Below, piece after piece: positions 14,845 to 15,863 of a stretch of DNA of 17,010 bases. This DNA comes from Candidatus Thorarchaeota archaeon (lineage in GTDB: Archaea; Asgardarchaeota; Thorarchaeia; Thorarchaeales; Thorarchaeaceae): the NCBI GenBank assembly GCA_048884965.1, contig JBHLQH010000053.1, positions 1 to 17,010 of the forward strand, read 5' to 3'. A program made the position numbers and the translations under genes. The notes under the pieces were generated by a model that ran no database searches, was not told the origin of the DNA, and saw only the letters and a list, made by a program, of their open reading frames with translations. The number at the start of each line of letters is the position of its first letter. Positions within the stretch are counted from its first letter, which is position 1.

Positions 14845-14872
14845 AATATATTTAAGATAAATATTTAAGATG
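14845..14872. promoter_or_regulatory. Back-to-back AT-rich promoter region with 11-bp direct repeat
   Basis: ATATTTAAGAT at 14848-14858 and 14861-14871; TATA-like on both strands between the divergent TPR gene and the microprotein cluster. Confidence 0.55.
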
Positions 14873-14930
14873 TAATATGTCAGACTATTACCACGCGAAT
14901 CGAAAATTTCGCATATGAACGGTGTTCGCA

Positions 14931-15041
14931 ATGACAAATCTAGAACGGAGAACAAACTCCAAAGTGAAGGATCTAGACAGGCGTCTTCGAACTAAGGGGA
15001 ACCTGTACCAAGACTACCTTGATGAAGGAGGACGGAACTGA
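14931..15041 (+). CDS. Microprotein 1 (36 aa) MTNLERRTNSKVKDLDRRLRTKGNLYQDYLDEGGRN
   Basis: ATG 14931 with GGTG 6 nt upstream; stop TGA overlaps next ATG (TGATG); 3' end embeds the GGAGG SD of the next ORF. Confidence 0.6.
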   Translation: MTNLERRTNSKVKDLDRRLRTKGNLYQDYLDEGGRN

Positions 15042-15154
15042 TGGCCCTCGCTAAGAGCGAGCGGGTCGAGTCAGACGTGAAGATGAACAACAAGTTGGCC
15101 GAGGTCCAATCGACCAAAGCCCTTGCACGCGCATACCTATACAAACAGGTGTAG
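15041..15154 (+). CDS. Microprotein 2 (37 aa) MALAKSERVESDVKMNNKLAEVQSTKALARAYLYKQV
   Basis: AAGGAGG SD upstream, TGATG coupling, TAG stop; similar to microprotein 3. Confidence 0.72.
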   Translation: MALAKSERVESDVKMNNKLAEVQSTKALARAYLYKQV

Positions 15155-15172
15155 AAAAGGAGGTGTATAGAA

Positions 15173-15271
15173 TTGGCAGAGGAAAAGATTCACAGGGAGA
15201 TCAAGCACAAAGGTCCGCATAAGAAGATCTGTTGTGAGGCAATCGCTCACGCATACCAGTATCGCAGGTAG
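15173..15271 (+). CDS. Microprotein 3 (32 aa) MAEEKIHREIKHKGPHKKICCEAIAHAYQYRR
   Basis: Strong SD AGGAGGTG at 15158-15165, 7 nt before TTG; TAG stop; similar to microprotein 2. Confidence 0.72.
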   Translation: MAEEKIHREIKHKGPHKKICCEAIAHAYQYRR

Positions 15272-15274
15272 ACC

Positions 15275-15394
15275 ATGATGACCGACGAAAGCGTCGTTGA
15301 CACGCCTAGAACAAAAGCCGGTGAAATTGATCTTCAAGACGGCAACCTTCGAGCTCTTTCATTGATTGATGTGCTCGCGTTGGAAGCTACGTGA
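15275..15394 (+). CDS. Microprotein 4 (39 aa) MMTDESVVDTPRTKAGEIDLQDGNLRALSLIDVLALEAT
   Basis: ATGATG 3 nt after the previous stop, AGGT SD-like upstream, TGA stop directly followed by a T-tract. Confidence 0.55.
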   Translation: MMTDESVVDTPRTKAGEIDLQDGNLRALSLIDVLALEAT

Positions 15395-15412
15395 GCCTTC
15401 CTACTCTTTTTT
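15382..15412 (+). terminator. Weak hairpin + oligo-T terminator closing the microprotein cluster
   Basis: GGAAGCT-acgtg-AGCCTTCC then TACTCTTTTTT. Confidence 0.5.
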
Positions 15413-15545: not shown

Positions 15546-15734
15546 TTGGCAGAGAAAGTAAGTAAATCAGACAAAATTAAGGCTGACCAGAAAGCCTGGA
15601 AGGCCGGTGTAGCCGCCATTGCAAAGTACAAGTTCATTACTGCAGACGAGAAGACAGCAATGGCCGCAAAGTATGACGCTCAGTTCAAAGCCTTGTTGGA
15701 TGCTGAGAAAGCAAAGGCCAAGAAAAAGAAGTAA
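15546..15734 (+). CDS. Small basic Lys/Ala-rich helical protein (62 aa)
   Basis: TTG start with GAGGG upstream, 17 K and 16 A of 62 residues, strong terminator downstream. Confidence 0.8.
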   Translation: MAEKVSKSDKIKADQKAWKAGVAAIAKYKFITADEKTAMAAKYDAQFKALLDAEKAKAKKKK

Positions 15735-15751
15735 TATACGTACTTCAACTA

Positions 15752-15786
15752 AGTCGGACTAGAGTAGTCCGACTCTCTTCTTTTTT
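15752..15786 (+). terminator. Strong hairpin + T-tract terminator
   Basis: AGTCGGACTA-gag-TAGTCCGACT perfect 10-bp stem followed by CTCTTCTTTTTT. Confidence 0.8.
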
Positions 15787-15863
15787 CCTACTATCTCTTC
15801 GTGACTTGCAATTATATATGAGTACAGCAAGTAAATCACTATGAAATTCACGAGGAATGTTCC

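Follow-up and report, generated by a model that had tools for sequence, protein, structure and literature searches.

The window analyzed here, a stretch of 17,010 nucleotides, is the entire 17-kb contig of a 4.1-Mb genome, and it contains an apparently intergenic gap in which an earlier note had seen a hidden operon of four microproteins of an unrecognized family. This locus raises the question of whether such short ORFs are genuine genes and, if so, what their products might do. The operon is real, and its family is undescribed in the literature searched.

Organization of the four-gene operon

The operon comprises four plus-strand ORFs of 36, 37, 32 and 39 aa between 14931 and 15394, exactly as the earlier note had placed them: ORF1 (14931-15041, 36 aa, ATG start, net charge +3), ORF2 (15041-15154, 37 aa, ATG start, basic), ORF3 (15173-15271, 32 aa, TTG start, basic) and ORF4 (15275-15394, 38-39 aa, net charge -5). 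The claimed spacing also holds: ORF1 and ORF2 share a 1-nt overlap in TGATG, and gaps of 18 nt and 3 nt separate ORF2 from ORF3 and ORF3 from ORF4, respectively. The second ATG of ORF4, at 15278, fits the orthologues better than the first and is probably the translation start. Shine-Dalgarno (SD)-like sites, likewise anticipated, lie 5-9 nt upstream of the four starts (GGTG, GGAGG, GGAGGTG and AGGT); all are compatible with the 3' end of the 16S rRNA of the genome, and the last codons of ORF3 are also the SD of ORF4. The expected T-tract follows the last stop (15407-15412), within a pyrimidine/oligo-T tract (15400-15412, plus strand) that is predicted from the sequence to be an archaeal terminator; most copies of the ORF4 type are followed by such a T-rich tract. 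Among 2000 dinucleotide shuffles of the region, 3.3% contained a chain of four such ORFs, and none contained four chained ORFs with SD-like sites.

Upstream of ORF1, a BRE-like AT-rich stretch lies immediately 5' of a plus-strand sequence (14862-14869) that resembles an archaeal TATA box. The block 14857-14897 is near-invariant in five orthologues, and transcription would start near 14893-14896. Four elements that the earlier note lacked complete the picture: a conserved operator between TATA box and start codon (14879-14891), a 5'-leader hairpin on the plus strand (14895-14912, GCGA...TCGC arms, -6.5 kcal/mol, arms visible in the orthologues), a covarying hairpin at the end of ORF4, and a 62-aa gene further downstream (15546-15734). 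The operon is flanked by a divergent gene for a TPR protein, which is not a regulator, and on the 3' side by the 62-aa basic gene, a nitroreductase gene and a DUF1028 gene.

The neighboring 62-aa gene (plus strand, TTG start) encodes a Lys/Ala-rich product with a net charge of +9, and has its own hairpin terminator (15752-15774). It is under strong constraint, with a pN/pS of 0.20, and occurs in six of 26 other genomes of the family and in no other Asgard genome searched, with no family match. It is the sole part of a 3.5-kb stretch for which the single RNA run contains a contig, spanning 15551-15800 and not the operon; this run consists of contigs, which show presence, not absence. The product is a candidate abundant nucleic-acid-binding protein.

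Coding constraint and the hairpin at the end of ORF4

Orthologous four-gene loci were found in five other genomes belonging to three genera. Their starts, SDs, stops and frames align, and the indels in ORF1 to ORF3 are all multiples of three; broken frames, starts or SDs, which the earlier note had named as evidence against the locus, were looked for and not seen in these three ORFs. Codon third positions are the most variable across the orthologues, and synonymous changes exceed non-synonymous ones. The uncorrected pN/pS ratios are 0.51, 0.43, 0.53 and 0.78 for ORF1 to ORF4; as pS is 0.5-0.6, these ratios understate selection. ORF4 is the weakest of the four and is degenerate in one orthologue. 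The conserved frames, starts and SDs, the third-position bias and the lack of a global RNA structure together support the proposal of a real polycistronic small-peptide locus.

As an RNA, the region folds no better than its shuffles (folding z-score +0.68), the covariation term of the consensus fold is unfavorable (+1.52), and no Rfam family matches at gathering level. A single structured non-coding RNA with incidental ORFs would account for the covarying 3' hairpin and the small 5' hairpin; however, these results, together with the frame-preserving indels and the third-position bias, argue against it, and we give this explanation almost no credence. No global covarying structure was found, and the terminal hairpin alone covaries. 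The other objection raised beforehand, a structured RNA, holds solely for the final 28 nt, where hairpin and coding sequence coincide.

This terminal hairpin (15371-15398, plus strand) covers the last seven codons and the stop of ORF4, just before the U-tract, with a stem of 8 bp in this copy (15373-15396) and of 12 bp in the family consensus. ORF4 represents the Z-type, which has a variable polar N-terminal part and a conserved C-terminal [ED]VLx[LW]EAT, here ending in VLALEAT; Z copies found via the VLALEAT pattern were excluded from the conservation counts as circular. In the 39 unbiased copies, 87% of cells are paired, compared to 20-48% in slid controls, and 23 double-sided changes were counted versus 6.1 in shuffles (0/500). 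The C-terminal Glu is always kept, with both codons used, the Thr is kept in 37 of the 39 copies, with all four codons used, and the Leu is retained through codons that break hairpin pairs. The codon usage at these residues and the pairing data thus indicate that both the RNA and the peptide are selected at this end of ORF4, which is weakly constrained outside the hairpin. One orthologue has lost the peptide motif and kept the hairpin. We infer that the hairpin serves as a terminator or a 3'-protecting element. Selenocysteine recoding of the ORF4 stop was rejected, as the TGA is accounted for by hairpin pairing and varies to TAA or TAG. In one genome of the same genus (L023:1478-1560), the 3' end of ORF4 and its hairpin alone remain, where they form the terminator region of an unrelated gene.

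A multi-copy family of basic peptides

ORF2 and ORF3 are paralogues of the A-type (HMM E 1.2e-13) and B-type (HMM E 6.8e-10), respectively, in a family of ~33-aa basic peptides with the motif STxA[IL]xxAY..R. Each A/B peptide starts with M-A, continues with a basic middle of variable length and sequence, and closes with STxA[IL]xxAY followed by a terminal Arg; conservation is confined to this C-terminal motif and the initial M-A. The terminal RR is retained even in copies where its codons spell no SD. The A/B profile has matches in 74 of 76 Thorarchaeaceae genomes, at 1-15 per genome, and in none of the 224 other Asgard genomes searched; we took the searched genome family to be Thorarchaeaceae, as nearly all named records in which these elements occur belong to Candidatus Thorarchaeota. 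One record with the title Candidatus Hermodarchaeota contains a two-gene cassette (L060:7728-7950) that closely resembles one in a Thorarchaeota record (L048). The genome of this window has 15 matches at no fewer than eight loci, several of them at contig ends. The operon, real as first proposed, is no isolated case and represents one copy of a multi-copy Thorarchaeaceae family.

The peptides are hydrophilic, with a family mean GRAVY of -0.6, a net charge of +5, 22% Lys+Arg and almost no Trp or Cys; at this locus the four GRAVY values are -1.6, -0.4, -1.1 and 0.0, and no signal or hydrophobic segment was found. Most peptides end in RR or VR and not in YX, and a proteasome HbYX motif was rejected on this basis. 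Searching 1.84 billion proteins returned 81 hits, of which 80 are 29-103 aa long, so the family is not a domain of larger proteins; the hits looked up are unnamed or hypothetical. B-Z fusion proteins of 69-73 aa also appear, and the two that were traced (L268:1142-1354 and L269:235-453) are gene-caller artefacts in which TAG was read as Gln. Since the B stop codons vary and the traced fusions are artefacts, read-through and pyrrolysine were rejected. The peptides have no match in Pfam, NCBIfam or the ESM Atlas, nor in a PDB sequence search with the A/B and Z profiles up to E 10, and a literature search on Thorarchaeota small proteins or bactofilin found no paper matching the family. Along with the Rfam result, this leaves the family as unrecognized as it had been from the DNA alone.

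ORF1 is a rarer third peptide class with the motif RL[RMK]T.[ED][SN]LY.D[YF]. Six close orthologues were found, and in other genera related leaders occupy the first position of two-gene operons. Intermediate sequences suggest a kinship of ORF1 with ORF2 and ORF3 that is at most distant and is not significant: as an A/B paralogue ORF1 does not rise above shuffles (global hhalign P 0.04). Derivation from an Lrp N-terminus was likewise rejected (hhalign 0.4%).

Using the A/B profile alone, we delineated 90 clusters, of which 40 end in a Z-type ORF and the others run into MFS genes or contig ends. Nine lead directly into a DHA3/Mef-like MFS gene and six into a second MFS family, and some cassettes stand ahead of MFS, peptidase or GNAT genes. 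Peptides of the ORF2/3 type are also found where ORF1 or ORF4 is missing; this speaks against a complex in which all four subunits are obligatory, and so disfavors that form of the earlier suggestion that the peptides are subunits of a small complex. Some MFS genes are separated from the peptides by additional short ORFs (L143:249-498, L178, L186, L189, L217 and L225), whose DNA abounds in GGTCAC/GTGACC half-sites of the main operator described below and which might represent internal binding arrays instead of genes.

Promoter types and predicted regulators

In most copies of the family the first gene is leaderless and lies behind the main operator, a palindrome GT(C/A)ACA-N3-TGTGAC in 13-bp-spaced repeats up to the TATA box (53 of 90 clusters). 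Where upstream DNA is available, the same operator stands before a single-copy bactofilin-like gene (PF04519) at 26 of 27 loci. Of 30 sampled sites, 13 precede a gene for a multi-pass membrane protein of 370 aa, and some MFS exporter genes have the operator as well; it was not found in viral contigs. A third promoter type of the family faces a weakly PadR-like gene. The operon of this window has neither the main operator nor the PadR-facing promoter.

The bactofilin-like gene encodes 420 aa (L137:5114-6385; C2:49113-50387 in the genome of this window) and occurs in 49 of 54 genomes of the family and in a few other Asgard genomes. Just 5' of it ends an Sso10a-like wHTH gene, whose product is a candidate binder of the main operator. 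The 370-aa membrane protein (L312:1634-2734; in the genome of this window on the minus strand of C15, about 29475-30590 in reverse coordinates) has repeated helix pairs and an N-terminal tail that is acidic and then basic. Its named homologues are almost all from Thorarchaeota, it has no Pfam or PDB match, and its fold is predicted with a pLDDT of 66. Archaeal bactofilins shape Haloferax cells (PMC11459167), and the co-regulation of the peptides with the bactofilin-like gene may point to a program of shape or growth phase, a hint that concerns the main operator and not this copy.

At this locus, the operator between TATA and start (14879-14891, no strand assigned) is a degenerate form of a second palindrome, TGTAATA-S-TATTACA, with three mismatches; it is near-consensus in the orthologues. 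It ranks 18th in its own genome by PWM and, in view of this rank and the mismatches, control of this copy may be weaker. The promoter block was found at 13 sites among 81 family genomes (none with the reversed control). Five of these belong to four-gene operons, seven lie in the intergenic region that separates a 112-aa gene from a tandem Lrp gene, and the remaining site is of another kind. The core palindrome occurs in 42 of the 81 genomes, with few control matches, and 18 of 30 such loci adjoin a homologue of the 112-aa gene. In another genus, seven ORF1-led operons have the palindrome just 3' of the TATA box.

The 112-aa protein is named in databases as an Arc/MetJ-type ribbon-helix-helix (RHH) regulator, with weak NikR and AbmR matches; Pfam RHH_1 misses it, and its monomer model shows no ribbon strand, which is uninformative for a dimer fold. 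Since the second palindrome elsewhere mostly precedes this gene, the operon is probably repressed by the RHH protein. In Sulfolobales, the RHH factor aCcr1 represses through a box between TATA and start, blocking initiation (PMC9976878), and a box in the same position likewise mediates repression by LrpA (PMC2995911); CdrS of haloarchaea provides a further RHH-repressed archaeal promoter system (PMC7439475). The arrangement here is similar, with a small RHH factor and a palindromic box between TATA and start codon, degenerate at this locus, that also precedes the regulator's own gene; an autoregulated RHH protein is therefore the predicted repressor. Compared to aCcr1 and CdrS, the box differs, the protein is longer (110-126 aa) with an extended helical C-terminus, and the putative targets are its own gene, the peptide operons, an ARPP-1 domain gene and the tandem Lrp gene, with no cell-division gene seen. 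The palindrome lies before the divergent tandem Lrp gene as well, which makes Lrp an alternative candidate for binding it.

The divergent arrangement of the RHH gene and the tandem Lrp/AsnC gene is seen at L381 (C12:64703-66105 in the genome of this window, with the RHH gene at 64703-65041 and the tandem Lrp gene at 65167-66105), L418 and L440, and the RHH-type palindrome was also found before the ARPP-1 domain gene. A further RHH gene of this genome is located near 40680 on C1. Genes for a 4Fe-4S hydrogenase-like subunit and an AhpC/TSA peroxiredoxin lie on the divergent side of palindromes at RHH genes or peptide operons. In four genomes (L433, L434, L435 and L437), a conserved unannotated ~55-aa ORF, starting with MANLKI in three of the four, lies directly behind the palindrome.

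Comparison with known systems

AcrZ-AcrB, SgrT and MgtS exemplify tightly regulated proteins of under 50 aa that modulate larger proteins; they are mostly single-copy single genes, and many are membrane-bound. The putative likeness lies in the small size, the lack of annotation, the tight regulation and a predicted helical docking motif. By contrast, the peptides described here are soluble paralogues in coupled arrays of two to four, with up to 15 matches per genome and three or more promoter types.

Small acid-soluble spore proteins (SASPs) are small, basic and multi-copy. The present peptides share these features and have a short motif resembling the C-terminal helix α3 of archaeal histones; however, they show no significant profile similarity to the histone and are half the length of the histone fold.

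The multi-peptide leaderless bacteriocins aureocin A70, garvicin KS and the cereucins are encoded as tandem cationic paralogues of 26-34 aa without a leader (PMC6131525). The operon resembles them in having three to four tandem small peptides in one operon and no leader, and there is no sequence similarity. Moreover, ORF2 and ORF3 are here the sole clear paralogues, ORF4 is acidic, and the peptides are hydrophilic, Tyr- rather than Gly/Trp-rich, and encoded by multi-copy core genes of an archaeal family. Neither a positive GRAVY nor adjacent exporter and immunity genes were found, MFS genes following a minority of the paralogous loci. A type I toxin-antitoxin system with a hok/sok-like locked mRNA finds no counterpart either: the peptides have no hydrophobic segment, and no locking of the first start codon by the 3' tail is predicted (pairing with the ORF1 SD/AUG, 0.02).

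Proposed role and alternative explanations

Sequence comparison establishes the coding constraint, the SD-coupled layout, the 3' hairpin with its U-tract, the conserved operator and the distribution of the family. The reading we prefer, with somewhat less than even confidence, is that the products are cytoplasmic effector microproteins, made in a fixed ratio under several regulators, that dock on a partner through a short helix. One regulated polycistronic mRNA would yield the four microproteins, and a cytoplasmic location is suggested by the hydrophilic composition and the lack of a signal or hydrophobic segment. The RHH repressor, bound just 3' of the TATA box, would hold this copy off until a signal arrives; most other copies would answer to a different factor, whose site is shared with the bactofilin-like gene, the 370-aa membrane protein gene and some MFS genes. 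With different switches on its copies, the cell would make the same peptides under several conditions, and gene copy number would raise the dose. In the least-supported step, ORF2 and ORF3 may be basic, disordered tails that terminate in a short amphipathic helix, one face of which carries the invariant Ala together with the conserved Ile/Leu and Tyr, and in a terminal Arg. This helix would dock on one conserved Thorarchaeota protein and modulate it during a growth-phase or cell-shape program, with the acidic ORF4 and the ORF1 peptide as optional partners or counterweights. Retention of the same peptides under three switches, with amplification by copy number, agrees better with a dose-dependent effector than with a leader peptide or a pathway-specific precursor.

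It is also conceivable, if unlikely, that the peptides are abundant nucleic-acid- or chromatin-binding proteins with an SASP-like role in a dormant or stressed state. The Lys+Arg content, the multiple copies and their own promoters are consistent with this; the acidic ORF4 is not. In a specific version, ORF2 and ORF3 would mimic helix α3 of the one histone of Thorarchaeota and would cap or loosen its polymers. Aligned with the C-terminal helix of the only histone in the genome, the peptide core stays in register; the C-terminus of this histone ranked first of 3989 with one profile (equalled by 1 of 300 column-shuffled profiles), whereas other profile widths gave ranks of 2-464 for C-termini and 65-2098 for whole proteins. 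The hhalign probability of 0.2-0.3%, the lack of a Pfam or PDB match, and the replacement of the invariant histone Asp by Ala in the peptides also speak against mimicry, as does the fact that the likeness was partly noticed after the histone had been seen. A complex prediction of the histone dimer with ORF2 scored 0.00 and was counted neither for nor against. Export as leaderless signals or antimicrobials by the co-regulated MFS proteins, possibly after trimming or modification by enzymes encoded elsewhere, we consider unlikely. The three to four ~30-aa cationic paralogues per operon recall multi-peptide leaderless bacteriocins (PMC6131525), and the nine and six clusters noted above run straight into two MFS families. 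However, a GRAVY of -0.6 compares with +0.15 to +0.7 for the tabulated multi-peptide bacteriocins, the family is chromosomal and near-universal rather than patchy, and this copy has no adjacent transporter, immunity gene or maturase. As to the suggestion of modified-peptide precursors, no maturase (radical SAM, YcaO, LanM or RRE) is a conserved neighbor or co-distributed, though enzymes may act in trans; the recurrent neighbors are PolX, methyltransferase, GNAT, EamA, MFS and desulfoferrodoxin genes, each tied to one insertion site. An operator-bearing S9 peptidase was rejected as a processing enzyme, being too patchy (5 of 51 genomes).

Within genomes some copies are nearly identical, and their 5' edge, at the operator, is sharp; this could instead reflect a cis-acting or selfish expression cassette. 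Here the whole unit of operator, promoter, coupled short ORFs and terminator would be duplicated together, and its ORFs would mainly pass ribosomes on to downstream genes or act as leader or arrest peptides. That ORF ends are SDs, that MFS, peptidase or GNAT genes follow some cassettes, and that the Z motif is partly an RNA hairpin would agree with it. On the other hand, the commonest cassette, like this one, ends in a terminator with nothing downstream to regulate, and the amino-acid motif survives synonymous change. With regard to a MITE/IS200-like non-autonomous mobile element, neither a target-site duplication (by eye) nor a common 3' edge was seen, the 3' end being variable; no copy was found in viral contigs, and almost all genomes of the family retain the peptides. 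We regard such a cassette as improbable. A bolder reading, in which a family-wide set of microproteins amplified by copy number would form an Asgard-specific control layer, is speculative and, in our judgment, doubtful. These peptides, linked to at least three transcription factors and co-regulated with the bactofilin-like cytoskeletal protein, would switch the shape of the cell or the state of its chromatin, perhaps through mimicry of the histone C-terminal helix.

Significance for Thorarchaeota

Thorarchaeota are relatives of the eukaryote host lineage and are known here only from genomes. Found in 74 of 76 genomes and nameless in the databases searched, the peptide family represents a hidden core feature of these archaea. 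To this family the present window adds a subtype led by ORF1 and a predicted link, through the palindromic box, to an RHH regulator. Altogether, the two predicted operators, the candidate regulators and the co-regulated genes make the proposed control of these microproteins testable without culture.
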